Assembly (NCBI GenBank): GCA_976551045.1
Contig: CDPCPM010000125.1
Location: forward strand, 62,001-126,000
Origin: Glaucostegus cemiculus
Lineage: Eukaryota
Length of the DNA stretch: 64,000 nucleotides
Reading direction: 5' to 3'
The notes beneath the pieces are model-generated. The model saw only the letters and a program-made list of their open reading frames with translations, did not search any database and was not told the origin of the DNA. The translations under genes and the position numbers were made by a program. Shown here in pieces: positions 1-64,000 of the stretch; the stretch's first letter is position 1, and each line of letters begins with the position of its first letter.

Positions 1-626
1 AAGTGGAGGTTCGCTTCTACCGGCATCGACTGTTGATGGAGGTGAAGAGACTAGAACTCCAGAGGAGCTTTAGACAAGGAAAGTTTGAGGGCCTATAATT
101 TGAAGGTGAACATTGTCAGAAGGCAGAGAAGATATCACAAGCAAGATTATTGGATGCGAGGAAGCGTGGCATGCACAGCCAGGGCGAACTCATATAATCA
201 TCAGAAATCAGTAACACGTGCGGCCGTGATAACAGAGGAACAGTGAAATGTGCTCCAGCTACGGAGGCTGCACTCGATTGGAGAAAAGGATAAATCTCTG
301 ACTGGAATATGAATCGAGGATTTTTGAGGACAGCCAGTCAGTGTCGAGATGAGGATTTGACAAGAGCAGGTTCCTTGACTGTGTTTGATGAAAGAAAGAG
401 TGATTGAGATCCAGCCTGAGACAGATTTTCATGACAGGCTGCTTTGCACTCGGGCTGCTGTTCTCACACGACAATTGTATACCAGAGGAACTGCTGGGGG
501 GTGTGGGGGCGGGGGGGGTGGGGTGGAGGGGGGTGGTGGACAAAAGCCTTTTCCATGGTTGATTGGATATAAATCAATCTTGGCATATAAAGCATTCTTG
601 GTCTGCGTGCGTTTGATTTGTCAGTT

Positions 627-698
627 TCCCTGGTGGTCTAGTGGTCAGGATTGGGCGCTCTCACCGCTGCGGCCCGGGTTCTTTTCCCGGCCAGGGAA
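627..698 (+). pseudogene. tRNA-Glu(CTC) pseudogene
   Basis: tRNA-Glu body with broken B box (GGTTCTTTTCC) and anticodon-stem changes. Confidence 0.8.
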
Positions 699-1901
699 GT
701 GTGTTTTGGCAACTGGAATATGTCGGAATCTTCGGACCTGCAGCCACTGGTCCAGTATCAGCTCTGCTGACACAGTGCTTCTGCCGGCAGAATGATCAAG
801 GTATCTTCCACTTCGCTGTGAAGCTACGGGACATGCTAGCAAATACTGGAATGCACAAGTCGAGTTGATTTTTATCAACTTTGAGCAAACAGAAACGGGC
901 ACTGATCTCAGCCATGAATGAAGTGTGACGCCAATGAGTCGGCTCAAGCGGAGAGATGTCACTGGAAGTACGGCTGATCAGAGGGTACAATCTGACTTGG
1001 TTGCTTTGCGAAGCTGCACACTGCTTCAGACCCCTAAGCCGATGTCTTGTAAAAGGAGCCCATCCACAGTAAATCAGCCTGTCCCCCGAGATTTACTTCC
1101 GAATTCATCTGACGAAACCAAGCAATCCAACGGAACCCAGGGCGACGGGGTACAGTGCACCCAACAGCGGAAATGTAACGCCTGCTCATGGTACATCTGG
1201 AACGGCTCGGCGGCAGTGCTTGCAGCCATGCCGGCCTGGGGCCCTGCATGGTGTGTGTGTGCCATTTCAGATCGGGTCAATTGGAGATTGTCAGCAGACG
1301 GCGTCGACATCTGGTGAATGTTAATTGAATAAACATCGTCTGTGCCCGTCAGTTTAAGTGAAGCAAAATTTATAAATTGAATTATAGCTAATCTCGGGGA
1401 GAAGATAGAAAGTATAACAGAAGAAAGATCTTTGATTTTCGAAAGGTGACTTAATCGGATACGGCCATTTGAAATAAAACCGGAATGGGCCTGTCCGTAA
1501 CATGAAAGAAATGCATGGTGTTTGTTCAACTGCGCATGCATCGCAGCAGTTGAATGAAGCAGCAGCAATGAAGAAGGCAGGGTAAAGTGCTGATGAGCTT
1601 GACGTGAAGATATGGGAAAAGGACGATTCTCTCAGTTGATTGTCAATGGTAGTTGGCTGAGGCGATATTGGCGACTGAGGATTCCAGCGAAGCACCTTTG
1701 ACCCTTGTATATGTTGAGAATGGAGGTGGCTTCGCTTGCCGCTTGAGTGAAACGATGAGATCAGTGTCCATTTGGCCGGGGCGAATTTAGCTGCCTGTAC
1801 GTCTGCCGGGACTTGAAGAGAAAATCATTTTGGATAATTATTTTCTGATTTGTGAGCTTGGCAAACAGAATATTGGTGAGCTGTGTTGATTTCAGTCAGA
1901 T

Positions 1902-1973
1902 TCTCTGGTAGTCCAGTGGTCAGGGTTCGACGCTTTCACCGCCGCGGCCCGGGTTCGATTCCCGGTCAGGGAA
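1902..1973 (+). pseudogene. tRNA-Glu(TTC) degenerate copy
   Basis: Full length with intact B box but several acceptor, D-arm and anticodon-stem substitutions. Confidence 0.75.
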
Positions 1974-2866
1974 GTAAGTTTTGAAAGCTGCGACAAGAAG
2001 TAAGTTTGAGAACCTTCATCTGCAGCACAAACCAGCGACATATCAATCAACGTCTCTCTGGATACAGTGAACACGGCCTCCTCCACCGAGTGAGCAGGCT
2101 ACCTTCCAGGAATCAGGCTTCCTTGACTGTAAATCAGTGGCAGAGTTGATAGAATTTACCCCAAGATGAATAACGTCCCATCCAACTCGTATCCGTCGAC
2201 CTCATCTTTCAATCAGTCAGCTGCACTCGCGACCCATTAGATAGTCCCTAAATAACAGAGTCAATCGAAGGCGATTGTATTTTGTAAAGAAACAGGAGTA
2301 CAGATTGAAAGAGTTGAGCGCTATCCACGTCAAGGTGAAGATTGTTAGAAGGCAGAGAAGATATCACAGTCATGACTAATGCACGCTTGGGGGCGTGGGA
2401 TAAACAGCTACAGTGAACTCAAATCATCAATCATCAGAAATGTGTATGTGGCGTGAAAGGAATGCATGTACTTCTATCGGTTTTGTCAGCAAAATGTGAT
2501 GCGGCCGTGAAGAATATAGAAAGAGCAAAATGTTCTCTAGCGACAGAGGTTGCATTCAATTTAGAAAAGGAAAATTCCCTGACTGGAATGTAAAGCGTAG
2601 ATTTTTGGGGAAAGCCAGTCAGTGTCGAGATTAGGATTTGTCAAGAGCATGTTCCTTCACTGTGTGTTTTTTTTGAAAGACAGAGTGATTGAGAAACAGC
2701 CTGAGCCATATTTTCATGGCAGGACGCTTTGCAGTCAGGCTGCTGTTCTCGCACGACCACTATTTTGCCCGAGGAGCTGCTGGGAGGTGGATAGAAAGCC
2801 TTTTCTGTGGTTGGCTGGATAGAAATGAAAGCCGTTCTTGTTCTGCGTGCGGTATGTTCATCAGGT

Positions 2867-2932
2867 TCCCTGGTGGTCTAGTGGTTAGGATTCGGCGCTC
2901 TCACCGCCGCGGTTCGATTCCCGGCCAGAGAA
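2867..2932 (+). pseudogene. tRNA-Glu(CTC) pseudogene
   Basis: 6-nt deletion at the variable loop/T stem. Confidence 0.8.
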
Positions 2933-3886
2933 GTGTGTTTTGGCAACTGGTACCAGTCAGAATCTTGGGAGCAAGCAGCCACTGGTCCACCGTCAGATTT
3001 GTTGACACAGGTCTTCTGCCGCCTTAATGAACAAGGTATGTTCCACGTCGCGGTGAAGCTCCTGGACAGGCAAGCGGGTATTAGAATGCATCAGTCGAGT
3101 TGATTTTTATCCACTTTGACAAAATAGAAACTCGCTCAAACCTCAACCATGAATGAGGTGTGATGCCAACGAGACGTCGTAAGCGTAGAGATGTCACTGG
3201 AAGTATGGCTGATCAGCGGCACAAATTAACTGCGCTGCTTTGTCTGCGCATCTGCAGGCTGCTTCCGACTCCTGAGCCGAGATCTTGGAAAAGGGAATCT
3301 TTTCACGGTAAATCAGGCTTTGCCCTGAGAATTCCTCAGAAACGATAGGGGTAAACCACGCAAAGGACAATGGTGTCCAGTGCACCCAATAGCGGGAAAT
3401 GTAACGCCTGCTAATGCTATATCTGGAACGGCTCGGCGGCAGTTCTTGGCCTGCCGGCCTGGGGCCCTGCACAGCGGAAAGGGCCTGTCCTTAACATGAA
3501 AGATATGCATGGTGCAGTTTCACCTGTTCATGTACAGTAGGTATCTCAGCAATGAAGACGGCAGGGCAAACGTGCTGATGATCTTGAGGTGAAGATGTGG
3601 GAGAAGGAAGATGGTCTCAGTTGTTTATCAATGGTAGTTGGCTGGGACGATATTGGCGACTGAGGATTCCAGCAAAGCAACTTTAATGCTTGTGTATGTT
3701 GAGAGTGGAGGTGTCTTCGCTTGCAACTTGAGTGAATAGATGAGATTTGCGACAATTTGACTGGGGTGAATTCAGCTGCCTGTACGTCTGCTAGGACGTG
3801 TTGAGATAATCATTTTGAATAGCTGTTTTCTAATTTGTGAGCATAGCAAAGAGAATCTTGCTGAGCTGTGGTGAATTCAGACAGAT

Positions 3887-3958
3887 TCCCTGGTGCTCTT
3901 GTGGTTAGGATTCGGCGCTTTCACCGCCGTGGACCGGGTTCGATTCCCGGTCAGGGAA
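3887..3958 (+). pseudogene. tRNA-Glu(TTC) degenerate copy
   Basis: A box/D arm mutated (G10C, A14T); rest near canonical. Confidence 0.7.
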
Positions 3959-4841
3959 GTAAGTTTTGGAAACTGCGACGTGATTACTTCCAGTGTCTTC
4001 ATCTGCACCACAAACCAGCGATATATCAATCAACGTCTCTTCTGGATGCAGTGAGCACGGCAGCCTCCACCGAGTGAGCCTGGTAGCTTGCAGGGAACTG
4101 CATTCCCTGGATGTAAATGAGCAGCTGAGTTGATAGAATTTGCTCAAAGATCAACCAGCTCTCATATCACTCATATCTTTCGCCCTCAGCTTTCAATCAG
4201 TTAGCCGTAGTCGCGACCCATTAGACAGTCGCTAATTAACAGAGTAAATCTTACGTGCTTGTGACTTGGAAGGAAACAGGTGCACAGATTGAAAGACTTG
4301 AGGGCCAGCAATGTGAATGTGGATATTGTCAGACGGCAGAGAAGATATCGCAATTATGATTAATGGGTAACTGGAGGCGTCGGGTAAGCAGCCACGGTGA
4401 ACTCAAATCATCAACCATCAGAAATATCAACATGACGTGAAAGGAATGCCTGTCCTTTTTTCATTTTTGGAAGCAAAGTGTGATTCGGCCCCTCAGATAA
4501 ATGAGTGAAATGTTCTCTAGCTCAGGAGGTTTCATTGGATTGGAGAGCAGGATAAATGTGAATGACTAGAATGTGAATGAAAATATTTTGAGCACAGCCA
4601 GTGTCGAGATGGGGATTTGACAAGAGCATGTTCCTTCGCTGTGTTTGTTTGTAAAAAAAGTGTGATTGAGAAACAGCTTGTGACCGATTTTCATGCAGGT
4701 TGCTTTGCACTCGGGCTGCTGTCCAGGCAAGACAATTATATTACCTGAGGATCTGCTGGGAAGTGGAGAGAAATCCCTTTCTATGGTTGTCTGGATATAA
4801 ATGAAAGCCATTCTTGGTCTGCGTGCGTTGTATTGTCAGGA

Positions 4842-4914
4842 TACCCGGTTGTCTAGTGGTGAGGATTCGGCGCTCTCACCGCCGCGGCCCAGGTTTCGAT
4901 TCCCGTCCAGGGAA
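4842..4914 (+). pseudogene. tRNA-Glu(CTC) pseudogene
   Basis: Acceptor and T-stem mismatches, 1-nt insertion. Confidence 0.78.
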
Positions 4915-6115
4915 GCTTGTTTTGGCAACTGGAACCAGTCAGAATCTTCGGAACCAGCAGACACTAGACCAGCATCAGATTTGCTGACACAGGGCTTCTA
5001 CTGGCAAAATGAACAAGGTACCTTCCAGTTGGTTGTGAAGATCCTGGACAGACAAGCGAGATTCAGAATTCATAAGTCGCGTCGATTTTTATCCATGTTG
5101 ACCAAATAAAAACTCGTACTGTTCCCAGCTGTGAATGAGGTGTGATGCCACATAGTAGTAGCAAGCGTAGAGATGCCACTGGCCGTGCGGCTGATCAGCG
5201 GGCACAATAAACTGGTTTGCTTGGTCTTCGAATCTGAAGGCTGCTTCGGACTCCTGAGCCGAGTTCTTTCAAAAGGAAGCCTTTTCACGGTAAATCAGGC
5301 TGTGCCCTGAGAAGTCCTTCAGAAAACATTGGGCTAATCCGCGCAATCCCAAGGGACCAAAGCCCAATGTTGTCCAGTGCACACAATAGCGGGAAATGTA
5401 ACGCCTGCTCATGCTATATCAGGAACGGCTTAGCGGCAGTTCTTGCAGGCGTGCCGGCCTGGGGCCCTGCTTGTTTTGTGCCACTTCGGTTCGGGCAATT
5501 GGAGATTGCCAGTTGATGGCCTCGACACATGGTGAACGATCATTGAATAAACAACGACTGTGCCGGCCAGTTTAAGACAACAAGCAAAATTCATAAATTG
5601 ACTTGAAGGAAATCTCGGGGAGCAGGTAGAAAGTGCAGCGGAAGGAAGAGTTTTGATTGTCGAAAGGTGACATAATCAGAAACGGCCGTTTGAAAAAAAA
5701 ATCAGCGGAAAGGGCCAGTCCGTAACATGAATGAAATGCATGGCGTTGATTCAACTGCGCATGTACATAAGGTATCGCAGCAATGAAGAAGTAGGGCAAG
5801 CGTGCTGATGATGTTGAGGTGAAAAGTGGTAAAAGGAAGATTGTCTCAGTTGATTGTAAATGGTAGCATCTTGAGACGATATTGGCCGCTGAGGATTCCA
5901 GCCAGGCAGCTTTGACGCCTGTGTATGTTGAGAATGGAGGTGGATTCGCTTGCAGCTTGAGTGAAAAGATGAGATCAGTGTCCATTTGGCTGGGGTGTAT
6001 TTAACTGCCTGTACGTTTGCTGGGACGTGATGAGAGAATCATTTTGAATACTTGTTTTCTGATTTGTGAGCTAGGCAAATAGAATGTTGGTGAGCTGTGG
6101 TGATTTCAGACAGAT

Positions 6116-6199
6116 TCCCTGGTGGTCTAGTGTCGAGGCGCATTAGGGTGTTCTAGTGCTTTCACAGCCGCGGTCCGGGTTCGATTCCCGGTCAGGCAA
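6116..6199 (+). pseudogene. tRNA-Glu(TTC) pseudogene with D-arm insertion
   Basis: D arm replaced by a longer sequence compared with the paralog at 43404. Confidence 0.78.
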
Positions 6200-7066
6200 G
6201 TATGTTTTGAGGCTATGACAAGTGATAACTTTCGGAATCTACATCTGCACCAGAAACCAGTGATATATCAGTCAACGTCTCTTCTGGAGACAGTGAGCAC
6301 GGCATATTCCACAGAGTGAGCCAGCGAGCTTGCAGGAAACAGACTTCCCTGCCTGTAAGTCAGTAGCTGAGTTGATAGAACTTGCTCATAGATGAACCAG
6401 CTCTTATCCCACTAGTATCCGTCGCCCTCATCTCTCAATCAGTCAGCTGCAGTCGCCACCCATTTGACAGTCGCTAAATAACAGAGTAAGTCTCGAGTGC
6501 TTGTGACTTGGAAAATAAGAGACGCACAGATTGAAACTTGAGGGCTAAGAATTTCAAGGTGAATATTGTCAGTTGGCAGATCATAATGAATGGATTACTG
6601 GTGGCGTGGGGTAAACAGCCACGCTGAATCCAAATCATCAGACATCAGAAATCTCCACATGACGTGAAAGGAATGCGTGTCCTTTCGTGTTTGGAATCAA
6701 AACGTGATGGGGCCGCGTTGAAAAAAAATAAAGAGTGAAATATTCTCCAGCTACGGAGGTTGCATGCGATTAGATAGCATGACAAATCTCTGACTGGAAT
6801 GTGAGTCGAAGATTTTTAATGATCGCCTGTCAGTGTCGAGATGAGGATTTGACAAGTGCTTGATCCTTGACTGAGTTCGAAATATTGATTGAGAAACAGC
6901 CTGAGACAGATTTTCATGGCAGGATGCTTTGCACTCGGGCTGCTGTTCTCGCACGACCACTGTCTTGCCCGAGGAACTGCTGCGAGATGGATAGAAAGCC
7001 TTTTCCGTGGTTGGCTGGATATAAATGAAAGCCAGACTTGGTCTGCGTGCGTTTTATTTATCAGGT

Positions 7067-7112
7067 TCCCTGGTGTTCTAGTGGTTAGGATTCGGTGCTC
7101 TCACCGCAGCGG
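7067..7112 (+). pseudogene. 5' fragment (46 nt) of tRNA-Glu(CTC), left junction of the GPCR cassette
   Basis: Homology ends in the variable loop; no T arm. Confidence 0.82.
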
Positions 7113-7214
7113 AGGAAGAGAGGTAATTTTCTCTGATTTAATGTTAGATCCTTTGATAGCTTTTCAGATGGCATTGGGACCCTGACTGGTTTCACATCGA
7201 CATAGATTGTTACT

Positions 7215-7610: not shown

Positions 7611-8598
7611 TTTCTCTCAGTCTCCCAAGTTGCGGTAAGTTTTGTCCCAAAATGTTCGCCCTTGCTCTCTATGCCAACCCCTTCATGTGGGAATCATCAC
7701 GGTGAACCTCGGCACTGCTGCAGCACAGGAAAACCGCGCCTCATGTATGAGATAACCCCCCCCACTTGCGAAGTTCTCTTCTCCCGTTTACTGCCCCACC
7801 CCCATATCACTTGTTGAGGGAAGATGAGAATGTAAGTACATGGAGGAGTAGTGGGCCGCACGGCCGATCAAGGCTGTTCCGCACTGAATATCATCGTTCC
7901 TCCCAATGGGAACCCGCCTCATGAAATATCCTTGTACGGAGATCAATCCCTGAACCAGGGAGAGATTGAAAACTATAACAATCAAATCAATAACAGTAAG
8001 AGCCAGGTCGGGAGCGGTGACCTTCCCTCAATCTCTAACCTTAACCAGCGTTGTCCACACAATTTCTCATCCGCAATCAAACACTCGGTTGTTGGGCTTA
8101 GTCTCATTCATTTGAAAGTGTAGTTTCTTCACTGATCCACACATTGTACAGAACGGCGGGAAACTTCACCAACACACTTTGCGAACGGCAGGTTCTCATG
8201 CAGAAGTTCCACTGCAATATTTATTCGCTGTTGAGTCAGTCTGAAGCTGCCATCAGCCGCCGTGTGTCGAGCGGTAAATGCCGAGGCCGTCTCCCACTTG
8301 CAACTCCGTTTCTCCGGAGATCGAGAAATTCCACTCGCTTTCCGAGGTCTTTGTTTCTCTACTGCTTCACCGCACGTAATAACTACTCAATGAGAGCTGG
8401 ACAGAAAAGAGTTAATGCCATTTGTTTGTTCAGTGTGTGTGACAAATCAGTGACACCAATTCCATCCAGAGAGGTTTGCTCTGCTATTAATAGAGGCGCC
8501 TGTCCAACGTGTCCTCCCAGCGCGTCAGCGAGAGCTTCCCCACTTCAACCCGGAGAATCATCAAGCTCCAAACACGGGGAATTGTTGTCGATGAAACA

Positions 8599-8677
8599 AT
8601 GTCGCTTGATATCTATTCTTTCTCGGATTATTTTGAGAAATTATACTTCCCCGTGCTCGCTTCCATCGCTGTTCCAG
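8599..8677 (+). CDS. GPR139/142-like class A GPCR copy 1, coding exon 1 (MSLDIYSFSDYFEKLYFPVLASIAVP + 1 nt)
   Basis: ATG at 8599. Donor CAG|GTATGC at 8677/8678, phase 1. Joins exon 2 in frame to give TM1 'ASIAVP-VNAVTIVILS'. Conserved in all four copies. Confidence 0.85.
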
Positions 8678-10704: not shown

Positions 10705-11603
10705 TCAATGCCGTGACCATCGTGATCCTGTCGCGGGGGAAGTGCGGTCTCTCCAAGTGCGTCACTCGCTACCTGGTGGGCATGGCAGTGACGGACCTGC
10801 TTGTCACTGTCCTCGACCTGATACTGCGGCACATCCCAACTGCTTACTGGCAACAGTTTTCATTCCTGTTTTACTCCCGCGGGTGTCAGACGCACGCCTT
10901 CCTGCTGAAAGTGTCCACGGACTGTTCTGTCTGGTTCACCATCGCGTTCACCTTTGATCGGTTCGTGGCAATTTGTTGCAAGAAGCTGAAAACAAAATAT
11001 TGCACCGAGAGAACGGCGGCCGTAGTTCTGGGGACAGTGACTGTGCTGAGCTGTTTCAAGGACATCACCTGGTATTTTCTGCTCGCGGATGAATATAGTT
11101 TAATTGAAGACCCAAAGATCTGTTTTTCCTCGGCCAATACTTTGTTTTCAGAGGTCTGGGGAATGATTGAGCTCCTCCACTATATCCTCACCCCTGTGGT
11201 CCCATATGTCCTGGTTCTGCTGCTGAATGTTTTAACCATCAGACACATTTCAGTGGCGAGCAGAGCCCGCAGGAGACTCCGGGGTTCCTGCAGCGTGGAG
11301 GGTGTCAGAGACCCGGAGATGCAGAACCGCAGGAAATCAATGGTTTTACTGCTGCTTATCTCGGCTAATTTCATCCTTTCATGGCTGATGCTCATCCTGT
11401 ACAATGTGTGGCGGGAATTGTATTGGTTTTGGATCGCTGTGCCTCCGCCTTACTGGTTACAACAAATGGGATTCTGGTTCCAGCTGCTGAGTTGTTGCAC
11501 GAACACTCTGATTTATGCCGTGACCCAGACTAAGTTCCGGCAGCAGCTAAAGCTTGTGCTGAGATTTCCCCGAACTCTCGTTGTAAAATGCATCGGAAGG
11601 TAA
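10705..11603 (+). CDS. GPR139/142-like class A GPCR copy 1, exon 2 (intact; spliced protein 325 aa)
   Basis: Polypyrimidine acceptor tttctcttctcag|TC. Seven hydrophobic segments. Motifs: N1.50, MAVTD (D2.50), TM3 Cys plus ECL2 Cys, FTFDRFVAIC, TPVVPY, FILSW, SCCTNTLIY. Stop TAA at 11601-11603. Confidence 0.9.
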
Positions 11604-11612
11604 CGGGACCGG

Positions 11613-48098: not shown

Positions 48099-48997
48099 TC
48101 AATGCCGTGACCATCGTGATCCTGTCGCGGGGGAAGTGCGGTCTCTCCAAGTGCGTCACTCGCTACCTGGTGGGCATGGCAGTGACGGACCTGCTGGTCA
48201 CTGTCCTCGACCTGATACTGCGGCACATCCCAACTGCTTACTGGCAACAGTTTGTATTCTTGTTTTACACCCGCGGGTGTCAGACCCACGCCTTCCTGCT
48301 GAATGTGTCCACGGACTGTTCTGTCTGGTTCACCATCGCGTTCACCTTTGATCGGTTTGTGGCCATTTGTTGCAAGAAGCTGAAAACAAAATATTGCACC
48401 GAGAGAACGGCGGCCGTTGTTCTGGGGACGGTGACTGTGCTGAGCTGTTTCAAGGACAGCACCTGGTATTTTCTGCTCTCGGATGAATATAGTTTAGTTG
48501 ACGACCCAAAGATCTGTTTTGTCTCGGGCAATACCTTGACTTCAGAGGTCTTGGGAATGATTGAGCTGCTCCACTATATCCTCACCCCTGTGGTCCCATA
48601 TGTCCTGGTTCTGCTGCTGAATGTTTTAACCATCAGACACATTTCAGTGGCGAGTAGAGCCCGCAAGAGACTCCGGAGTCACTGCAGTGGGGAGGGTGTC
48701 AGAGACCCGGAGATGCAGAACCGCAGGAAATCCATGATTTTACTGCTGCTTATCTCCGCTAATTTCATCCTCTTATGGCTGATGCACATCGTGTACAATC
48801 TGTGGTGGCAATTGTATTTGTTATGGTTCTATGTGGGTCCACCTTACTGGTTACAAGAAATGGGATTCTGGTTCCAGCTGCTGAGTTGTTGCACGAACAC
48901 TCTGATTTATGCCGTGACCCAGAATAAGTTCCGGCAGCAGCTGAAGCTTGTGCTGAGATTTCCCCGCACTCTCGTTGCAAAATGCACCGGAAGGTAA
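48099..48997 (+). CDS. GPR139/142-like GPCR copy 4, exon 2 (intact; spliced protein 325 aa)
   Basis: Acceptor ttctcag|TC, open frame to TAA, all class A motifs as in copy 1. Confidence 0.9.
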
Positions 48998-51059: not shown

Positions 51060-53240
51060 AACACATGGCATCCATGGAGACCTGGTCGACTGGATTCGAA
51101 ATCGGCTTGACAATGGGAGACCACGAGTACTGATGGAGGGTGCAGTTCAGATTGGTCTGTGTCCAGTGGGGTTCCACAGGGATCAGTGCTGGAACGTCTG
51201 TCGGTGATTTGTAAATATCTGAGACGAAAGCACAAGCAGGCTGATTAGTAAATTTGCAGACAATAAGAAAATTGGCGGGGAGGTGTACAGGGGGGAAGGA
51301 TGTCAAAAATGTAAAGCATTTGGAAAGATGCGCAGAGAAGTAGCAAATAGAATTTAATCCTGAGCAACACGAGACGTTGCACATTGGGATCTGAAATATT
51401 GTTGGAAAGTATGCAATCAATTATACGGATCGTAAGGAGTATTGATGTTCAGAGGGATCTCGGGGTGTAAATCCATAGGTCCCTGGAAGTGATAACGTCA
51501 GCAGTGTCGGTGGTAATGAAGCCGTACGGGATACTTGCCTTACAGGACAGTGCTTTGAGTATAAACGCTTGGAAGTTATGTGGCAGATACAAATGACTTT
51601 GACTGGGCCACAATTGGAATGTTGTGCGAAGTTGTGCTCTCCGATTACAGGAGCGATGTGGAGGTTTTGGGAAGTGGGCAAAGAGGTTCACATGGATGCT
51701 GCCTGGATTCGAGAACATTAGCTATAACGATAGGTTGGACAAACTTGGAATCTTTTACTCTGGAGCGGCGGAGGACGAACAGCCGTCTCTGTCCAGGGCG
51801 GGATGTTGAGTTGCCAGTTCTGCCCTTCCTTAAGCCACGTCCCACCGACCGCAGCAACTCCACATTCCCATGCGCTGACCAATGCCATCAAGTTGATCTG
51901 CCTCACCAGTCAGACCCCTTGCACTTAACACCCTGCAATTCAGCCATTGCATCCTTTCACACGTATTGTCACACTGACGTCTGCTCTGCCTCCTCGAACG
52001 ACCTAGTGTTTCTATGGATGACTGACCCTCACTACAACTGTACACCTACTCTGTGTCCCACCCGCTGCCAAATTAAGTTCGAACCTCCCCAACAGCACGA
52101 GCGACGCCACCCACCGCCCCAGTAGGAATATTGGACCAGTTAAGCTGCAACGCTTCCTGCTGGTACAGATTCCACCTGACGCAGAAAATGTCTCAATGAT
52201 CTAAAGGCCCCCAAAATCCGCCAACCACCTAATTCTCTCCCTCCTCTCCCTTCCCTGCAGACACACAGTTCTGCTGACCTGTCTGTCCTTTCCTATGGTT
52301 ACCAGCGGGTGGCTCTGGCAGTAATCCAGAGAGGACAACCTCAGAGGTCCCTCTCTTTAATCTGCTCCCTAACTCCCTACGTTCACGGTGCTGGACCAAT
52401 AACAAGGTGAGTGGTAGGAGATATAAAGGGGTTCTGAGGGGTATTTTCTTTACACAGAGAGTGTTTTATATCCGGAACGCTCTGCGAGAGGAGGTGGTGG
52501 AATCAGATAAATCACTACATTAAAGAGACATTTAGACCAACGCCTGAATAAGCAAGACAGTAAGAGAAAAAGAGCGAATGCGGGCGTGGAGCAAAGTAGA
52601 TGAGTGAAAATGTCGGCCTGAAGCGGTGGACCAAAGGGCCCGTTTCTGTGCTGTACAACTCCATAATTCAATGACTCTATGAGCTCAACCCCTTTTCTAC
52701 CCGTGGCGCTAGTGCCGACCTGTATCACGGCCACTGACTGTTCACTCTCGCCATTCAGCCGCTCTACGACATCACATCCCGGCACCAGGAAGCGAAAGTC
52801 CTGTTCGAGTCTCGTTCGTAGCTGCAGAAACAACTCGCTGCTTTCCCTACAACTGAAACCCTGTCACCCCCAACCAAGCAGGCCCATGCGCAGCAGAGCC
52901 AATCGAGTTATTACAAACTTGAATTTTGTTGCTTTCCGATAGGAGGCTATTTCCCTGCTCCGCCAGCAGTACCTAAGGCGTTATAACTGTTTAAGAGGGG
53001 AATGGTTACCGAGAACTCTCCCACTACCTGCCCACACATACCACTCCCCCCAGAGTCCCAGGCTATGAATAAACAAGGAAACGTGATGTTGAATCTTTAT
53101 AAAAAACTGAGCCTGCCTCACCTGGACTATTGTGTTCGATTCTGGGAAGGGTGTGAACACGTTCGAGAGGGTCCAGAAAAGATTTTCAAGAATGGTTGCT
53201 CGGGTGAGAGACTGTAGTTACAAGGGCCGATTAGAGGCTG
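51060..53240. mobile_element. CR1 fragment mosaic (paralog)
   Basis: Colinear homology. Confidence 0.72.
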
Positions 53241-53837
53241 CAACTGTGTTCTGTGAAGAAGAGAGGAAAGAGGGGGGATCTGACCGAAGAGCAGGAGATA
53301 ATGAGGCGCCTGGACAGATTGGAGAGCGGGCAGCAGTGCCCTCTGGCGGCCTAGTCGAGCATGGGTTGTCACAGGAATCAAATAACTGAAGAGTGATGTG
53401 AAGGGAAATCATGTGGTCAGAATCAGGAAGGCGCCGCCTACAGATGTGGGAGAGGCAGGTTCTAATGTGACCGTCAGAAGGGAATCGGATGAGCATACAG
53501 TGGGAATGATTCGGAGAAAGTGCCAGTGGGTGGAAGGAAGGTGCTCTGGCAGAGAGCCGAAATGGACATGTTAAAGCCGGAGAGACATCGAGTTACTCAG
53601 CACTGAAACAGGCTCTTCGGCCCCAATCACCCACGGACCTAACTTTTGTGTGATCTGGTCAGCTCTCTGTCTCTCCCAAACGTAGAAGCAGATCCTCGGT
53701 CTCTTTTAGAAATATGCCTTTAGTGATAATTATCAATAAAGTGATGAAATCCCCGGAAACTGTCTTTTCAGATAGTTTGCGTCTGTCTGGTCTGTCCAGA
53801 ACAACTGCTCATTCCCCCATTGTATTATCGGGTTTAG

Positions 53838-54930
53838 TTCAGAAGAGTTCATTGTCATATTCATGAGTCGTGTGAAGCTGAAAGAGTTCACAGTCGTCAT
53901 TATAATAAACACAACAATAAAGACAAGAAGAAACACTTTGAGCGCAAAACAGCAGAATGGTCCAAACTGAAGAGGTGCAAAATGAAATGCTGAGGTGACA
54001 ATAACGGCAGAGGTAGAATTCAAAGTTCAAAAACGTGGCTGCAGCACCGGGAAGGGGATGTGAAAGAGCTGGTTGGTTCAGGGTTCTGAACGCAGTGGGG
54101 AAGAAGCTGTTCTTGATTTTGGTTGTCCGGGATTTCAAGCGCCCGTGTCTTCTCCTCGTAGGCAGGAGAGAGAAGGGAATGGCCCGGTTGGTAGGCACTC
54201 TTGACGATGCCGTTCGCCTTCCCGATGCAACGCACCACGAAGGTGGTCTGCATGGAAGGAAGTGAATCTGTGACGGACCGGGCAGTTTTACCGTTCTCTG
54301 CCGGTTCCGTCGGTCGAGAGCAGAGCAGGTGCCGTCCCAGGCTGAGGTGTAACCTATCGGGATGGTTTCTGTAGCCCATTGTAAAAGTTAGAGAGAATCC
54401 TCGTGGACAGGCCGAATCTTCTCAGCATCTTCAAAGAATCTTCTAAGAAAGTAAATACGTCGATGCACTTTCCTGATCACCGCATTAGTGTGGCGGAGAC
54501 CCGGAGACGTTGCTTGCGATACGGATGTCTCGGATTTAGAAACTGTCGACCATCTCTGCAGCAGCTCTGTTGATGAGGACAGGGCTGTGTTCACGCACGT
54601 CCGCTTTCCTTACGTCAACAACAGGTCTTTCTCTTGCCGATGATAGGGAGTAGGTTGTTATTCTGGCAGCATAACAGAAGGTTTACGATGTTTCCTGTAC
54701 TCTGTCTCATCATTGCTGATCCGGCTGATAACAGAGGTGTCACCGGCGAAATTGAAAATCCATTTGGCACTGCATTTGGCCTCACGAGTATGGGTGTACA
54801 GGAAGTCGAGTAGGGAACTGAGCACTCCACATTGGGGAGCACTCTGGACTGGCTGACCGCCTTCTGGACTCTGACCACACTCGGGCCAGAGTCCAGAAGG
54901 CGGTCAGCAAGTCCAGAAGCCAGTTCCGAT
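53838..54930 (-). mobile_element. Rex1/Babar-type LINE remnant (paralog)
   Basis: Near-identical to 16390-17480. Confidence 0.72.
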
Positions 54931-55499
54931 GGAAGACCGTTGCATACAGAGGAAAATGAAGTGGTTTGTTTTGCAGGTGTAATATTAGACAAGAACGTTA
55001 ATTCCATCGAATTCTGGTGTTGAATCACAGGCGATTAATTGTCTATTAGAAAATCTGGTCATTTGGACGCAGGTTAAGGAACGAGAATTGAAAAATGTAA
55101 TTCCTTTACATGTATCATACTGCAAGACATAACATGAGATACCTGTCCAATTTGCAGTATACAACCAGTTTTACACACACATTGACTTAACTTCAATGCT
55201 ATCCTCTTCTCAACCATCCACTTGCCTCTGTGTCCCAACTCACCACTAGCACCCCTCCTCCCCACAACGGGTTCGATTTGCACGTTGTCCTTCACCCTTG
55301 CTCGGTCAACTAATCCCTCTGACCCCTATCTAACTCCTCGCCTCTTCCTTATATTGTCAAGTTCCACTCCACGCTTAGTCCTGATGCACGGCAATTATAT
55401 ACCCGTGGAACAGCTGGGAGGTGGACAGAAGCAGTTTCCATGCATGGCTGGATATAATTGAAAGTCATTCTTGGTCTGCGTGCGTTGGATTTGTCAGGT

Positions 55500-55571
55500 T
55501 CCCTGGTGGTCTAGTGGTTAGGATTCGGCGCTCTCACCGCCGCGGCCCGGGTTCGATTCCCGGCCGGGGAA
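55500..55571 (+). tRNA. tRNA-Glu(CTC), probably functional
   Basis: Same sequence as 18051-18122. Confidence 0.85.
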
Positions 55572-56751
55572 GTGTGTTTTGGCAACTGGAATTCGTCAGA
55601 ATCTTCGGAGCTGCAGCCACTGGTCCAGCATCAGCTCTGCTGACACAGGGCTTCTGCCGGCAGAATGATCAAGGTATCTTCCACTTCGCTGTGAAGCTCA
55701 GGGACAGGCTAGCGAATATTAGAATGCATAAGTCGAGTTGATTTTTATCCACTCTGACCAAATAGAAACGGGAACTGATCTCAGCCATGAATGAAGTGTG
55801 ACGCCACCGAGTCGGCTCAAGCGTAGAGATGTCACTGGACGTACGACTGATCAGAGGTTACAATTTGACTTGGTTGATTTGCCAATCTGCACACTGCTTC
55901 AGTCCCCTGAGCTGATATCTTGTAAAAGGAGCCCATTCACAGTAAACCAGTCTGTCCCCTGAGAACAACTTCCGAATTCATCGGACGAAACCAGGCAATC
56001 TTACGGGAATACAGAGCGATGGTATACAGTGCACACAATAGCGGGAAATGTAATGCCTGCTCATGGTACATCTGGAACGGCTCGGCGGCAGTGCTTGCAG
56101 CCGTGTCCGCCTGCGGCCCTGCATGCTGTGTGTGTGCGCCATTTCAGATCGGGTCAACTGGAGATTGTCAGATGTTGGCGTCGACATCTGGCGAGTGATC
56201 ATTGAATAAACATCGTCTGTGCCCGTCAGTTTATGTCAAGCAAAATTTAAAAATTAAATTATAGGAAATCTCGGGGAGAATAGAAAGTATAGCAGAAGAA
56301 AGATCTTTGATTGTCAAAAGGTGACTTAATCGGACACGGCCATTTGAAATAAAAAGCGGAAAGGGCCTGTCCGTAACATGAAAGAAAGGCATGGCGTTAT
56401 TTCAACTGCACATGTACTGAAGGTATTGCAGCAATTAAGAAGGCAGGGCAAAGTGCTGATGAGCTTGACGTGAAGATGTGGGAAAAGGACGATTCTCTCA
56501 GTTGATTGTCAATGGTAGTTGGTTGAGGCGATATTGGCGAAGCACCTTTGAACCTTGTGTATGTTGAGAATGGAGGTGGCTTCGCTTGCAGCTGGAGTGA
56601 AACGATGAGATCAGTGTCCATTTGGCCGGGGCGAATTTAGCTGCCTGTACGTCTGCCGGGACTTGAAGAGAAAATCATTTTGGATAATTATTTTCTGACT
56701 TGTGAGCTTGGCAAAGAGAATGTTAGTGAGCTGTGGTGAATTAAATCAGAT

Positions 56752-56823
56752 TCCCTGGTGGTCCAGTGGTCAGGATTCGAAGCTTTCACCGCCGCGGCCC
56801 GGGTTCTATTCCCGGTTAGGGAA
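56752..56823 (+). pseudogene. tRNA-Glu(TTC) pseudogene
   Basis: Paralog of 19304; broken B box. Confidence 0.78.
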
Positions 56824-57727
56824 GTAAGTTTTGAAAGCTGCGACGAGGTAAGTTTGAGAACCTTCATCTGCAGCACAAACCAGCGATATATCAATCAACG
56901 TCTCTCTGGATACAGTGAAAACGGCCTCCTCCGCCGAGTGAGCAGGCTTCCTTGCAGGAATCAGGCTTCCTTGACTGTAAATCAGTGGCAGAGTTGATAG
57001 AATGTACCCCAAGATGAATAACGTCCCATCCAGCTCGTATCCGTCGCCCTCATCTTTCAATCAGTCAGCTGCAGTCGCGACCCATTGGACAGTCGCTAAA
57101 TAACAGAGTCAATCGAAGGCGATTGCATTTTGGAAAGAAACAGGAGCACAGGTTGAAAGAGTTGAGGGCTAACCACTTCAAGGTGAAGATTGTTAGAAGG
57201 CAGAGAAGATATCACAGTCATGATAAATGTACGCTTGGGGGCGTGGGATAAACAGCTACAGTGAACTCAAATCATCAATCATCAGAAATGTGTATGTGGG
57301 GTGAAAGGAATGCCTGTCCTTCTATCTTTTTGTCAGCAAGCTGTGATGCGGCCGCGACCAATAAAGAAAGAGCAAAATGTTCTCTCGCGACAGAGGTTGC
57401 ATTCGATTGGAGAAAAGAAAAAATCCCTGACTGGAACGTAAAGCGTTTTTGAGGAAAGATTTTTGAGGAAAACCAGTCAGTGTCGAAATTAGGATTTGTC
57501 AAGAGCATGATTCTTCACTGTGGGTGTTTTAGTTTGAAAGACAGAGTGATTGAGAAACAGCCTGAGCCATATTTTCATGGCAGGACGCTTTGCAGTCAGG
57601 CTGCTGTTCTCGCACGACCACTATTTTGCCCGAGGAACTGCTGGGAGGAGGATAGAAAACATTTTCTGTGGCTGGCTGCATATAAATGAATGCCATTCTT
57701 GTTCTGCGTGCGGTATATTCATCAGAT

Positions 57728-57799
57728 TCCCTGGTGGTCTAGTGGTTAGGATGCGGCGCTCTCACCGCCGCGGCCCGGGTTCGATTCCCGGCCAGGGAA
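57728..57799 (+). tRNA. tRNA-Glu(CTC), probably functional
   Basis: Same sequence as 20280-20351. Confidence 0.85.
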
Positions 57800-58739
57800 G
57801 TGTGTTTTTGCAACTGGAACCAGTCGGAGTCTTGGGAGAAAGCAGCCACTGGTCCACCATCAGATTTGTTGACACAGGACTACTGCCGCCGAATGAACAA
57901 GTTATGTTCCACTTCGCAGTGAAACTCCTGGACAGGCAAGCGGGTATTAGAATCCATAAGTCGAGTTGGTTTTTATCCACTTTGACCAAGTAAAAACTCG
58001 TTCAGACCTCAACCATGAACGAGGTGTGATGCCAACTGGACGTCGTAAGCGTAGAGATGTCACTGGAGGTACGGCTGATCAGCCTGCAAAATTTGACTGC
58101 TCTGCTTTGGGAGTCTGGAGGCTGCTTCCGACTCCCGAGCCGAGATCTTGTAAAAGGGAGTCTTTTCACGGTAAATCAGTCTGTGCCCTGACAATTCCTC
58201 TGAAACCACCGGGGTAAAACGCTCAATATTAAAGGAGCAAAGTACAATGGTGCGCATTGCACCCAATAGCGGGAAATGTAACGCCTGCTCATGCTATATC
58301 GGCGGCAGTTCTTGCAGGCGATCCAGCCCGGGGCCCTGCACAGCGGAAAAGGCCTGTCCGTACCATGAACGAAATGCATGGCGTAGTTTCAGCTACTCAT
58401 GTACAATAGATATCTCAGCAATGAAGAAGGCAGGGCAGACGTGCTGATGATCTTAAGCAGAAGATGTAGGAAAAGGAATATTCCTCAGTTGTTTGTCAGT
58501 GGTAGTTGGTTTAGACGGTATTGGTGACTGAGGATTGTAGCGAAGCAGCTTTGACCCTTGTTTATGTTGAGAATGGAGGTGGCTTCTCTTGCAGCTGGAG
58601 TGAAAAGATGAGATGAGCGTCCATTTGACCTGGGTGAATTCTGTTGTGACGTGTTGAGATAATCATTTTGAATACTTGTTTTCTGATTTGTGAGCCTAGC
58701 AAAGAGAATGTTGGTGAGCTGTGGTGAATTCAGACAGAT

Positions 58740-58810
58740 TCCATGGTGGTCTAGTGGTCAGGATTTGGTGCTTTTACCGCGGTGGACCGGTTCGATTCCC
58801 GGTCAGGGAA
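58740..58810 (+). pseudogene. tRNA-Glu-derived pseudogene (TTT)
   Basis: Paralog of 21292. Confidence 0.75.
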
Positions 58811-59689
58811 GTAAGTTTTGGGAACTGCGACATGTGATAATTTCCAGAGACTTCATCAACACCACAAACCAGCGATATATCAACCAACGTCTCTTCTGGA
58901 TGCAGTGAGCACGGCATCGTCCACGGAGTGAGCCTTCTAACTTGCAGCATACTGGCCTCCCTGCATGGAAGTGAGTAGCTGAGTTGATAGAATTTGCTCA
59001 AAGATCAACCAGCTCTCACTTAACTCGTATCCGTCGCCCTCAGCTTTCAATCAGTGAACCGTAGTCGCGACCCATTAGACAGTCGCTAAATAACAGAGTA
59101 AATCTTACGTGCTTGTGACTTGGAAGGAAACAGGTGCACAGATTGAAAGACTTGAGGGCCAGCAATGTGAAGGTGAAGATTATCAGATGGCAGAGAAGAT
59201 ATCGCAATTATGATTAATGGTGGGGTGGGGTAACCAGCCGCGGTGAATTCAAATCACCAACCACCAGAAATGTCAACATGACGTGAAATGAATGCCTGTC
59301 GTTTTTTTCATTTTTGGAAGCAAGGCGTGATGCGGCCCCTAAGAAAAATGAGAGAAATGTTCTCTAGCTCAGGAGGTTTCATTGGATTGGAGAGCAGGAT
59401 AAATCTCTGACTGGAATGCGAATGAAAGGTTTTTGAGCACAGCTTGTCAGAGTCGAGATGAGGATTTGACGAGAGCAGGTTCCTTCACTGTGTTTGTTTG
59501 AAAGAAAGTGTAATTGAGAAAGAGCCTGAGACAAATTTCCATGCAGGATGCTTTGCACTCGCGCTGCTGCCCACACAAGACAATTAAATTTCCCGAGGAA
59601 CTGCTGGGAAGTGGAAAGAAATCCCTTTCTATGATTGGCTGGATATAAATGAAAGCCATTCTTGGTCTGCGTACGTTGTATTGTCAGGA

Positions 59690-59761
59690 TCACCGGTGGT
59701 CTAGTGGTTAGGATTCGGCGCTTTCACCCTCGCGGTCCGGGTTCGATTCCCGGCCAGGGAA
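59690..59761 (+). pseudogene. tRNA-Glu(TTC) degenerate copy in CTC-type flanks
   Basis: Leader and trailer are CTC-type but the anticodon reads TTC; stem mismatches. Confidence 0.75.
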
Positions 59762-60848
59762 CCTTGTTTTGGCAACTGGAACCAGTCATAGTCTTCGGAA
59801 CCACAGCCACTGGACTGCCATCAGATTTGCGATCCCAGGGATTGTGCCAGCAGAATGATTAACGTTGCTTCCAATTCGCTGCGAAGCTCTCGGATAGGCA
59901 AGCGAGAATGAGAATGCGTAACTCGAGTTGATTTTGACCAAACACACCATTTTGACCAAATATAAACTGGCTCCGATCTCAGCCATGAATGAGGTGTGAT
60001 GCCAGCGAGACGTCACAAGCGTAGAGATTCTACTGGAAGTACGGCTGATCAGCTGGCACAATTTGACTGGATTGTTTTATTTGCGAATCTGCAGGTTTCT
60101 TCCGACCCCTCAGCCGGTACCTTGCAGAAGTGAGCCCTTTCACTTTACGTCAGGCTGTGCACTGAGAATTCCTTCCGAATCCATCGGACTGAACCACGCA
60201 ATCCGAAGGGACCAAAGGGCAATGTTGTACAGTGCACCTGATAGCGGGATAAGTATCGCCTGCTCATGCTATCTCTGAATCCTTCAGGTGAAGACAACAA
60301 GTAAAATCATAGATGATTTTTCGGAAATATCATGGAGAAGATGGAAATAGAGAGAGAATTAAGATTTTTTGATTGTCGGCAGGTGATGTAATCGGATCCG
60401 GCGATTTGAAATAGAGCAGGAGAAAGGGTCTACCCGAAACATGACAGAAATGCATTGAGTATTTTCTACTGCGCATGTGCAGAATGTATCACAACAATAA
60501 GCAAGATAGGGAAACATGCTCATGAACGTGAAAATGTCAAAAGTGGATGTGAAAATGTCAGAAAAGAAAGATTTTCTCAGTTGATTGTCAATGGTAGTTG
60601 GTTGAGAGACGATATTGGCGACTGAGGATTCCAGCGAAGCAGCTTTGGCCCTTGTGTATGTTGAGAATGGAGGTGGCTTCGCTTGCAGCTGGAGTGAAAA
60701 GATGAATTCAATGTCCACGTGGCTGGGGTGAATTTAGCTGTCTGTAGGTCTGCTGGGACATCATGCGAAAATCATTTTTAATACCTGTTTTCTGACTTGA
60801 GAGCCAGGCAAAGAGAATCTCGGTGAACTGTGGTGCTTTCAGTCAGTT

Positions 60849-60920
60849 TCCCTGGGGGTCTAGTGCTTAGGATTCGGCGCTTTCACTGCCGCGGCGCGGG
60901 TTCGATTCCCTGCCAGGGAA
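60849..60920 (+). pseudogene. tRNA-Glu(TTC) pseudogene
   Basis: Paralog of 22442 with further A-box changes. Confidence 0.76.
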
Positions 60921-62123
60921 GAGTGTTTTGGCAACTGGAACCAGAAAGAATCTTAAGAGCCAGCAGCCACTTGTCCACCATCAGATCTGCTGACACAGGG
61001 CTTCTACTGGCAGAACGACCAAGGTATCTTCCACTTCGTTGTGAAGCTCCTGGACGGACAAGCCAGTATCAGAATTCATAAGTCGCGTCTATTTATATCC
61101 ACTTTGACCAAATAAAAACTCAAACCGTTCCCATCTGTGAATGAGGTGTGATGCCACATAGTGGTCGCAAGCGTAGAGATGCCACTGGACGTACGGCTGA
61201 TCAGCGGGCACAATTTGACTGGATTGCTTGGTCTGCGAATCTGAAGGCTGCTTCGGACTCCTGAGCCGAGTTCTTTCAAAAGGAAACCTTTTCACGGTAA
61301 ATCAGGCTGTGCCCTGAGAATTCCTTCAGAAAGCATTGGGCTAAACCACGCAATCCTAAGGGACCAAAGCCCAATGTTGTCCAGTACATCCAATAACGGG
61401 AAATGTAATGACTGGTCATGCTATATCGGCACTGCTCGGCGGCAGTTCTTGCAGGCGTGCCGGCCTGGGACCCTGCTTGTTTTGTGCCACTTCAGTTCGG
61501 GCAATTGGAGATTGTCAGCTGATGGCGTCGACACCTGGTGAATGATCATTGAATAAACACCGTCTGTGCCCGTCAGTTTAAGACAACAAGCAAAATTCAC
61601 AAATTGAGTTGTAGGAAATCTCGGGGAGAATCTAGAAAGTAGAGCAGGAAAAAGAGTTTTGATTGTCGAAAGGTGACATAATCGTAAACGGCCGTTTGAA
61701 ATAAAACAGCGGAAAGGGCCTGTCCGTAACATGAACGAAATGCATGGCGTTGATTCATCTGCGCATGTACAGAAGGTATCGCAGCAATCAAGAAGGCAGG
61801 GCAACCGTGCTGATGATGTTAAGGTAAAAAGTGGTAAAGGGAAGATTGCCTCTGTTGATTGTCAATGGTAGTTTTTTTTTAAGACGATATTGGCGACTGA
61901 GGATTCCAGCGAAGCAGCTTTGAACCGGTGTATGCTGAAAATGGAGGTGTCTTCGCTTGCAGCTTGGGTGAAAAGATGAGATCAGTGTCCATTTGGCTGG
62001 GGTGAATTTAGCTGCCTGTACGTCTGCTGGGACGTGATGAGAAAAATCAATTTGAATGCTGGTTTTCTGATTTGTGAGCTAGGCAAATAGAACGTTGGTG
62101 AGCTGTGGTGATTTCAGACAGAT

Positions 62124-62195
62124 TCCCTGGTGGTCTATTGGTTAGGATTCAGCGCTTTCACAGCCGCGGCCCGGGTTGGATTACCGGCCAGGGAA
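62124..62195 (+). pseudogene. tRNA-Glu(TTC) pseudogene
   Basis: Paralog of 23716. Confidence 0.78.
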
Positions 62196-62496
62196 GTTAC
62201 TTTTGGAAGCTGTGACAAGTGACAAGTGATAACTTTCGGAATCTTCATCTGCACCAGAAACCAGTGATTTGTCAGTCAACGTCTCTTCTGGATACAGTCA
62301 GCACGGCGTGATCTTATTGAAGAGTGGAGCGGGTCGAGCTCTAGACTGATCTCCTCCTGTGGTGTTTCTGTGGTTTTGATCGGTTTTCTATATTAGTAAC
62401 GATGTATGTCGATGTGAGACCAGTCAGGGTCCCAATGCCATCTGAAAAAAAATGAAAGGATCTAACATTAAATCAGAGAAAATTATCTCTCTTTCT

Positions 62497-62542
62497 CCGC
62501 GGCTGTGAGAGCACCGAATCCTAACCACGAGGCCACCAGGGA
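62497..62542 (-). pseudogene. 5' fragment of tRNA-Glu(CTC) inside an inverted segment
   Basis: Paralog of 24082-24127. Confidence 0.8.
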
Positions 62543-64000
62543 ACCTGACAAATAATACATATCCAGCCAACCACGGAAAAGGCTTTCGCACAATAGTGTC
62601 TGTGCGAGAACAGCAGCCCGAGTGCAAAGCATCCTGTCGTGAAAATCTGTCTCAGGCTGTTTCTCAATCACTATTTCTTTGAAACAAACTCAGTGAAAAA
62701 TCATGCACTTGTCAAATCCTCATCTCGACACTGACAGGCGATCATTAAAAATCTTCGACTCACATTCCAGTCAGATATTTTTCACGCTTTCCAATCGTAT
62801 GCAACCTCCGTAACTGGAGAACAATTAACTCTTTATTTTTTTCAACACGGCCCCAATACGTTTTGATTCCAAACACGAAAGGACAGACACTCCTTTCACG
62901 TCATGTGGAGATTTCTGATGATTGATGAATTGGATTCACTGTGGCTATTTACCCCACGCCACCAGTTATCCATTCATTATGATCTGCCAACTGACAATAT
63001 TCACCTTGAAATTCTTAGCCCTCAAGTCTTTCAATCTGTGCGTCTGTTTCCTTCCAAGTCGCAATCACGCGAGACTTACTCTGTTATTTAGCAACTGTCT
63101 AATGGGTCGGGACTGCAGCTGACTGATTGCGAGATGAGGGCGACGGATACGAGTGGGATGAGAGCTGGTTCATCTATGACCAAGATCTATCAACTCAGCT
63201 ACTAACTTACAGGCAGAGAGGCCAGTTTCCAGCACGATAGCAGGCTCACTCTGTGGAGGATGCCGTGCTGACTGTATCCAGAAGAGACGTTGACTGACAT
63301 ATCACTGTTTTCTGGTGCAGATGAAGATTCTCACTGGAGGAGACCTTCACTCAGCATCAATCCCTCTTTCATTATTTGCCTCCATTTTTATCTGTCTCCG
63401 AAGCTGCAGTAACATTTGTCCCAAAATGTTCGCCTTTGATCTCTATGCCAGACGCTTCATGTGGGAAATATCACGGTGAAGCTGGGCACTGCTCCATCAC
63501 AGGAAAACCGCGCCTCATGTATGAGATAACCACCCAGCCTCACTCCCAAAGTTCTTTCCTCTTTATTAACCCCCCGCCCGACCCCCACCAATATCAATTT
63601 TTGAGGGATCATGAGAACGTAAGAACATGGAGCAGCAGCGGGCCGCAAGGCCGATCAAGGATGCTCCGCACTTAATATCATCGTTCCTCCCAATGGGAAC
63701 CCGCCTCATGAAATGTCGTTGCACCGAGATCAATCCCTGAGTCAGGGATAGATTGAAAACTATAATAATCAAATCAACAACAGTGACAGCCAGGTCGAGA
63801 GTGGTGACCTGCCCTCAATCTATAACCATATCCAGCGCTGGCGACACAAATTCTCATCCCTGAACAAACGCTCGGTTGTTGGGCTTAGTCTCTTTCATTT
63901 GAACGTGTAGTTCTCATCACTAATCCACACGTTGCACAGAACGGCAGGAAAATTCACCAACACACATTCCAAACGGGAGGTTCTCTTGTAGAAGTTCGCC

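Follow-up and report, generated by a model that had tools for sequence, protein, structure and literature searches.

Receptor Genes and tRNA-Glu Blocks in the Window

The window analyzed here is the whole 64,000-nucleotide stretch C125:62001-126000, a part of one contig in the 2.85-Gb assembly (1,511 contigs) of the ray Glaucostegus cemiculus. In it, blocks of tRNA-Glu genes alternate with two-exon genes of class A G protein-coupled receptors (GPCRs), and the repeating unit described in a first-pass annotation of this DNA was confirmed. We consider it probable that the tRNA blocks are passengers of one duplication and that the receptors belong to a GPCR family of several thousand members, which are likely birth-and-death chemical sensors.

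Five receptor copies are touched by the window, all on the forward strand; copies 1 and 4 are intact, and copies 2, 3 and 5 are broken. Exon 1 was found where it had been placed before, at 8599, 25994, 39859 and 45873, each time with 79 nt and a GT donor, and exon 2 begins behind an AG acceptor at 10705, 28091, 42118 and 48099. In copy 1, exon 1 (8599-8677) comprises 26 codons plus one base and ends in a phase-1 donor; spliced to the intact exon 2 (10705-11606), it yields the expected protein of 325 aa with a 7tm_1 domain. Copy 4 (45873-49000; exons at 45873-45951 and 48099-49000) also encodes 325 aa and shares 90% identity with copy 1 in exon 2, and Pfam 7tm_1 scored 72.9 bits in these two copies against a cut-off of 30.5. 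Copy 2 (25994-28989; exon 1 at 25994-26072, exon 2 from 28091) is a pseudogene with a stop after 266 aa, so that transmembrane helix 7 (TM7) is lost, and with DRF changed to VRF. The pseudogene copy 3 (39859-42518; exon 1 at 39859-39937, exon 2 from 42118) has its exon 2 cut at 42518 and joined there to the spacer of the tRNA genes (tDNA). A fifth upstream flank had also been noticed; it occupies 63326-64000, the exons of copy 5 lie beyond the window (exon 1 is 387 bases past its end), and this copy is frameshifted after 54 aa.

BLAST detected 27 tRNA-Glu-like units in the window, 22 of full length and five cut at base 46, and ARAGORN made 17 tRNA calls; in two of them, a mutated Glu copy was called Lys(ttt). 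The units form five blocks on the forward strand. Block A (627-7112) consists of six full-length units ~1-1.3 kb apart and a half tRNA at 7067-7112, and block B (18051-24940) of six full-length units and a junction segment (23881-24940) that is inverted. Two full units, an AT-rich repeat (35920-37519) and a half tRNA at 38338 make up block C (35068-38383); block D (43404-44389) has a half tRNA at 44344 besides a single degenerate unit. Block E (55500-63338), with seven full-length units and an inverted junction segment, is 96-97% identical to the region of block B as part of a 37.4-kb higher-order duplicate. Receptor copies 1-4 each have tDNA on both sides, as had been reported. The AT-rich element of block C is a 1.6-kb interspersed repeat between two tRNA genes; it has a weak zf-RVT match, and similar sequence occurs at as many as 22 of the distant loci that were read.

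The spacer at 13300-17950, with copies at 30250-34950 and 50783-55400, contains decayed reverse-transcriptase fragments of the long interspersed nuclear element (LINE) type on both strands. This agrees with the LINE debris noted earlier, as the spacer matches reverse-transcriptase-like open reading frames (ORFs) of other loci at 13567-14254 (+), 16633-17391 (-), 30544-31254 (+) and 33683-34294 (-). Pfam searches of the 63 pieces scanned gave no more than a single sub-threshold zf-RVT match.

A Shared Duplication Junction Beside a tRNA-Glu Array

Reading C125 from 1 to 256 kb, we found eight closely related receptor genes between 27 and 146 kb, four of which are intact. An identical junction precedes all seven downstream genes: bases 1-46 of a tRNA-Glu are fused, with no visible microhomology, to DNA from ~1.5 kb upstream of exon 1. 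In the window it lies at 7067-7116 (+), recurs at 38338 and 44344, and is found in inverted form at 24127 and 62542; in two of the seven junction copies a junction-bearing piece of 1.1 kb is inverted. The first gene (C125:27336) carries the same upstream DNA without the tRNA half, and the 27 kb upstream of it contain no tDNA. Beyond the last gene, the tRNA array runs on at C125:153-228 kb without any receptor. The spacer matches of the array are confined to C125 (44/44), where twin segments of 19 kb and ~38 kb are 96-99% identical. Because one and the same junction is present in seven of seven later genes and the array continues free of genes, we conclude that a gene at the array edge was duplicated once together with the first few tRNAs.

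The locus started as a single receptor gene just upstream of an ordinary tRNA-Glu array. The founding break fell inside a tRNA gene, after base 46, and was joined to the DNA ~1.5 kb upstream of exon 1, giving a head-to-tail unit of gene, LINE debris and first tRNAs whose junction was handed on to all seven later copies. We infer that unequal crossing-over then multiplied this unit, and a deletion, an inversion and the four pseudogenes among the eight genes would have arisen along the way.

Three further observations concern this contig. The intron of the first array gene (C125:27336-35352), whose frame is intact, is ~6 kb longer than in its copies. Old fragments of a distant family member lie inverted (minus strand) at C125:41005-41627, 60841-61463 and 151527-152189, with 67-68% DNA identity; they are within the spacer of three units and were duplicated together with it. 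At C125:196-228 kb, tRNA-Glu copies have mutated anticodons that ARAGORN reads as Lys, Ala, Gly, Asp and SeC(tca), and decayed Glu copies of this kind could inflate the rare-tRNA counts reported for such genomes.

Receptor Loci Sampled Elsewhere Lack tDNA

The first-pass annotation had proposed that tDNA arrays drive the receptor expansion by recombination at tRNA genes and insulate the individual members through TFIIIC. At C125 the founding break does lie within a tRNA gene, the deletion in copy 3 terminates in tDNA spacer, and about half of the interspersed tRNA genes retain the A and B boxes, so that TFIIIC could bind; the repeated tDNA units are also a substrate for unequal crossing-over, at this locus alone. 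The evidence from the rest of the genome is against the proposal. In ~900 kb read, none of 70 family loci outside C125 had tDNA nearby (upper 95% bound ~4%), which is the outcome that the annotation itself had named as speaking against its idea. This tally omits one ARAGORN 'tRNA-Stop' call in the C1 block as spurious, and the 70 loci do not include a short fragment (L127) below the length rule. No tRNA was found at 20 dispersed members, at 20 motif-picked loci, in a 200-kb block of C1 or in 40 kb of C108, nor in the 60, 20 and 180 kb read of tandem arrays of the same subfamily (79-87% identical) on C524, C567 and C677, respectively. Genome-wide, an exact 34-base stretch of tRNA-Glu is found at 40 sites, compared with 5,289 receptor motif sites. 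A second main cluster of tRNA-Glu genes, on C744, contains 48 tRNAs in 90 kb without a receptor. The better-kept array on that contig (C744:10673117-10739410) comprises 27 tRNA-Glu genes, immediately followed by tRNA-Gln(CTG/TTG) genes in tandem at intervals of ~1.5 kb.

The C125 locus itself also fails to bear out the proposed roles. A single junction, instead of many, accounts for all interspersed blocks, and pseudogenes are flanked in the same way as intact genes. Both A and B boxes are intact in 17 of 32 interspersed tRNAs and in 29 of 69 tRNAs of the pure array (p=0.39), so the interspersed tRNAs show no excess conservation over the gene-free array. These results indicate that the partitioning of receptors by tRNA genes is real, yet a local accident of one duplication with the tRNA blocks as passengers, and that the receptor family multiplies likewise without tDNA at other loci. 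As a general mechanism, expansion driven by tDNA is largely refuted, and we regard it as highly improbable.

Size of the Receptor Family

The family extends far beyond the window. An exact 11-codon pattern from TM3 matched 2,938 genome sites (control 0), and an exact cytoplasmic-loop pattern matched 5,289 (control 5). On C1:0-6.1 Mb the cytoplasmic-loop pattern was also present at 25 of 42 TM3-pattern sites, and it was found at 9 of 20 sites of the promoter element described below. Since the patterns overlap only partially (25/42; 9/20), the total is probably 6,000 to ~10,000 loci, a rough figure in which the overlap was gauged on one contig. Of 20 motif-picked loci, 10 had an intact main exon, as did 4 of 12 loci of the C1 block; if between a third and a half of the 5,289 sites are intact, the estimate is ~1,750-2,650 intact genes. 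The acceptor rule used for calling intactness missed three genes of C108, which were scored as broken although their frames span the profile, and the exon-1 finder placed 35 of 53 first exons, four misses on C125 resulting from a match to the wrong twin. With thousands of motif sites and many broken copies, the birth-and-death repertoire suggested by the annotation is supported. C108 and C590 carry a subfamily of their own, with 60 or more genes in 3.6 Mb; its DRY motif reads DRT, and its first two extracellular loops are short.

Protein database searches returned 2,125 clusters at E<=1e-10, and all 120 listed carry the name 'probable GPR139'. All 240 listed matches to two family proteins were shark, skate or ray sequences; among them, the best match of one subfamily was a protein of a stingray (70%). 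A chimaera member of the family also exists. A further search of protein neighbours led to chordate 'probable GPR139' clusters. In our trees, subfamilies are common to sharks and rays. Two sets of database entries differ from the rest: P0001-P0003 of Heptranchias perlo (462-493 aa) score above what identity explains and may represent duplicated receptor segments or fused models, and the family member P0294 of Chiloscyllium punctatum falls in a cluster that includes an entry with a RING-type domain, possibly a fused gene model.

Relationship to GPR139 and GPR142

GPR139 and GPR142 are class A orphan receptors activated by L-Trp and L-Phe. The best match of the family profile in the PDB was human GPR139, a weak match of 54 bits against 42.7 for the next, and a single-sequence search of solved structures gave no GPR139 match at E<=0.001. 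The genome's own GPR139 (C73) and GPR142 (C301) are separate single-copy genes; family members score at most 61 bits, compared with 580 and 320 for the true GPR139 and GPR142, and are 22-25% identical to these two by BLASTP (25-34% in another comparison). The residues F109, H187, W241 and N271 are given as the binding residues of GPR139 in the available part of PMC5430874. In the family, H187 is kept in 78 of 88 rows and W241 in all 88; the F109 position is Y in 51 and N in 29, and the N271 position is F in 48, T in 20 and N in 2. We rejected the identification of these genes as GPR139 orthologues because a separate single-copy GPR139 is present, identity is low and the binding residues are not all kept.

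The genome's GPR139, its GPR142 and the family all have a phase-1 intron that lies two bases ahead of the TM1 Asn codon. AG was found at this site in 76 of 82 family rows, the six misses being rows in which the script did not locate the Asn, and a receptor of the prolactin-releasing peptide (PrRP) type (L177) reads through the site without an intron. Trees separated the family plus GPR139/142 from other peptide receptors with support of 100/99 and 100/100. Their 7-15 outgroups were of the PrRP, neuropeptide Y (NPY), somatostatin and angiotensin/apelin types, labelled by our own reading of the sequences; thyrotropin-releasing hormone (TRH) and neuromedin-U types were left out, and branches are long. 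The 'GPR139-like' label of the annotation therefore holds as relatedness, given the 100/100 clade and the shared intron, and fails as narrow paralogy, given a separate lineage with an amphibian sister. Prolactin-releasing-peptide-receptor-like genes were seen at C284:4279466 and 4297353, C456:1624844 and C428:474375-481516; the set includes an inverted pair 18 kb apart and one gene with an intron.

Closer relatives of the family than these were found by a profile search of 1.84 billion representatives, and names were looked up for 20 of 150 matches. Salamander proteins are sister to the chondrichthyan family with support of 99/96, followed by a branch of Latimeria and teleost proteins (P0356, P0359, P0377; 97/96) and then by amphioxus. 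Among the 25 matches of the salamander protein were 20 clusters from amphibians (66-100%) and a sturgeon protein (46%) but none from amniotes or teleosts; the search was word-limited and does not imply absence. The expansion is chondrichthyan; the lineage is wider and includes the amphibian and sturgeon relatives.

Constant and Variable Parts of the Receptor

The family rows keep the class A motifs: N1.50 in 87/88, D in 88/88, R in 87/88 and W6.48 in 88/88, with F or T at the third DRY position and without P6.50. The cysteine pair between TM3 and extracellular loop 2 (ECL2) is retained. A structure model showed seven long helices and helix 8, at a low mean predicted local distance difference test score (pLDDT) of 52.6.

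We applied a codon model to intact copies of two recent subfamilies (30 and 19 distinct sequences). Outside the extracellular loops, the ratio of nonsynonymous to synonymous change (dN/dS, omega) was 0.29 and 0.32, and omega=1 was rejected (twice the log-likelihood difference, 2dlnL, 112.5 and 88.7). Within them it was 1.27 and 0.89, and omega=1 was not rejected (2dlnL 2.6 and 0.7). The three extracellular loops change ~3.5x faster than the rest, and their entropy is 1.5-2.2 compared with 0.6-0.9 elsewhere; the loops also show more synonymous change, perhaps because segments were exchanged or sites misaligned. The helices and the cytoplasmic face are thus under purifying selection.

A promoter element, GTTAA-N7-TGTTTGTTCAGTG, lies at 8411-8439 (+) in the window and also at 25809, 39671 and 45685, with a TATA-like stretch ~60 bases downstream of it. 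It precedes exon 1 in 35 of 39 flanks and is common to two distant subfamilies that are ~62% identical and have non-aligning introns. Exact copies number 1,491 genome-wide (control 0); of 20 listed copies, 9 have a motif site 2.0-2.7 kb downstream of them, and none has one on the other side. The core of the element resembles what we take to be a forkhead site.

These data bear on two accounts of how the family grew. It might consist mostly of neutral hitch-hikers in duplication-prone chromosome regions, with a small functional core, and the many broken copies, the identical twins within and between contigs, the ~77-85% identity of non-coding flanks among dispersed members and the loop omega near 1 would fit this. 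Neutral copying is difficult to reconcile with a core omega of 0.29-0.32 in both subfamilies analyzed, with subfamilies common to sharks and rays, or with a promoter element kept where introns no longer align, and we judge it improbable. The receptor gene could also travel as a transposon-like cassette with fixed ends, as a module of ~5 kb is common to 19 of 20 dispersed members, in both orientations and on many contigs. The ends of pairwise homology are ragged, from about -1.8 to -5 kb on the left and from +1.2 to +5.7 kb on the right; the intron is retained, and no common terminus was seen, terminal repeats not having been searched for separately. Such a cassette is very unlikely.

Proposed Role of the Family

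Judged from its sequences, the family would be built as a repertoire in which many different inputs feed a single output. The members would couple to a common G protein, differ in the ligands they bind and be switched on by the shared promoter in one cell type. Our best guess, by likeness to GPR142 and GPR139, would be the sensing of small molecules or peptides at an epithelial surface. External or gut chemosensing is a plausible role, to which we give a little under an even chance.

The family might instead be an innate-immune or non-self recognition repertoire, comparable to formyl-peptide or Mrgpr receptors. An extracellular face that varies while the signalling face stays constant, fast turnover of copies and the TM3-ECL2 cysteine pair would suit peptide recognition, and the available part of PMC8557429 places protostome peptide receptors as the sister of the GPR139/142 group. 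The same pattern fits receptors of the olfactory type, and the amphibian relative, conserved and with one cluster per species, does not look immune-driven. An immune role is therefore a possible but rather unlikely reading.

Several points weigh against our interpretation of the receptors as a large sensor family with passenger tRNA blocks. The family keeps only two of the four binding residues of GPR139; a loop omega above 1 is not significant in the two subfamilies, and a value near 1 fits relaxed constraint too. Half or more of the sampled loci are broken. Twins on different contigs are 98.8-100% identical, so that some loci may have been counted as two haplotypes that the assembly did not collapse, and the true number could then be half as large; against such inflation, the assembly has just one copy each of GPR139, GPR142 and the ordinary peptide receptors. 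Of the 70 loci without tDNA, 39 were read for only ~4.5 kb per side, and local insulation at C125 may be compatible with the sequence.

We tentatively propose that the receptors may constitute a seventh family of chemosensory GPCRs, with between one and several thousand intact genes, from a GPR139-related lineage that persists as a single conserved gene in amphibians and sturgeon, and under the control of one forkhead-type promoter element. If this is true, the family is as large as the biggest mammalian olfactory repertoires, in fishes thought to be the poorest in chemoreceptors among vertebrates. If expressed in sensory or immune cells, it would fill the long-noted gap between the sensory ability of sharks and rays and their small known receptor sets. 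Through the relative in Xenopus and axolotl, laboratory animals offer a way to test which cell type and ligand are ancestral.

Comparison with Known Systems

Our literature search, which did not extend to most subscription papers or to some supplements, yielded no description of the receptor family or of a tRNA-GPCR array. A term search did not find GPR139 in the main text of PMC8455134, PMC11979771, PMC10620051 or PMC11406177, nor in that of the preprints 10.1101/2025.06.08.657570, whose tandem-cluster table could name the family, and 10.64898/2026.10.27.761883; 12 of the 24 supplementary files of PMC8455134 were searched and gave no match. The family is filed under the misleading name 'probable GPR139' and, so far as this search reached, is undescribed. 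The tRNA coupling by itself is ordinary, a clean case of one junction at the edge of a tRNA array. Elasmobranch tRNA loci are described as typically abundant and clustered, and as co-occurring with histone clusters, in the part of bioRxiv 10.1101/2025.06.08.657570 that was available, and that part mentions no co-amplification with GPCRs.

Compared with GPR139 and GPR142, the ray family keeps His5.43 and Trp6.48 but not Phe3.33 and Asn7.38, has a TM3 cysteine that is absent from the genome's GPR139 and GPR142, and numbers thousands of copies. The amphibian/sturgeon 'probable GPR139' gene (Pleurodeles XP_069092602.1, Xenopus tropicalis P0408, Acipenser P0424) is 29-34% identical to the family, and its salamander proteins share the motifs LSKS, WLTVAFTFDRY and DPE..RR..S with the family. 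Unlike the ray family, the amphibian gene is apparently not expanded: its frog, salamander and caecilian proteins are 66-74% identical, and each species in the 20 rows has one 90% cluster. GPR210A/B are extra GPR139/142-related orphans, a handful of genes in coelacanth, gar and teleosts, according to the available part of PMC6504862, in which sharks and cartilaginous fishes are not mentioned. The Latimeria and teleost branch in our trees is presumably GPR210.

Cartilaginous fishes have 20-62 olfactory receptor (OR) genes and the largest OR set has 2,399, as given in the accessible part of PMC10869828, and a 'relative paucity' of GPCRs is stated for these fishes in that of PMC8455134. The ray family belongs to another GPCR lineage than the olfactory repertoires (OR, TAAR, V1R, V2R). 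Vertebrate olfactory repertoires typically form clusters with pseudogenes, a variable ligand side and a shared promoter motif. The family resembles them in that its compact genes form birth-and-death clusters rich in pseudogenes, with a ligand side that appears variable and a common promoter motif.

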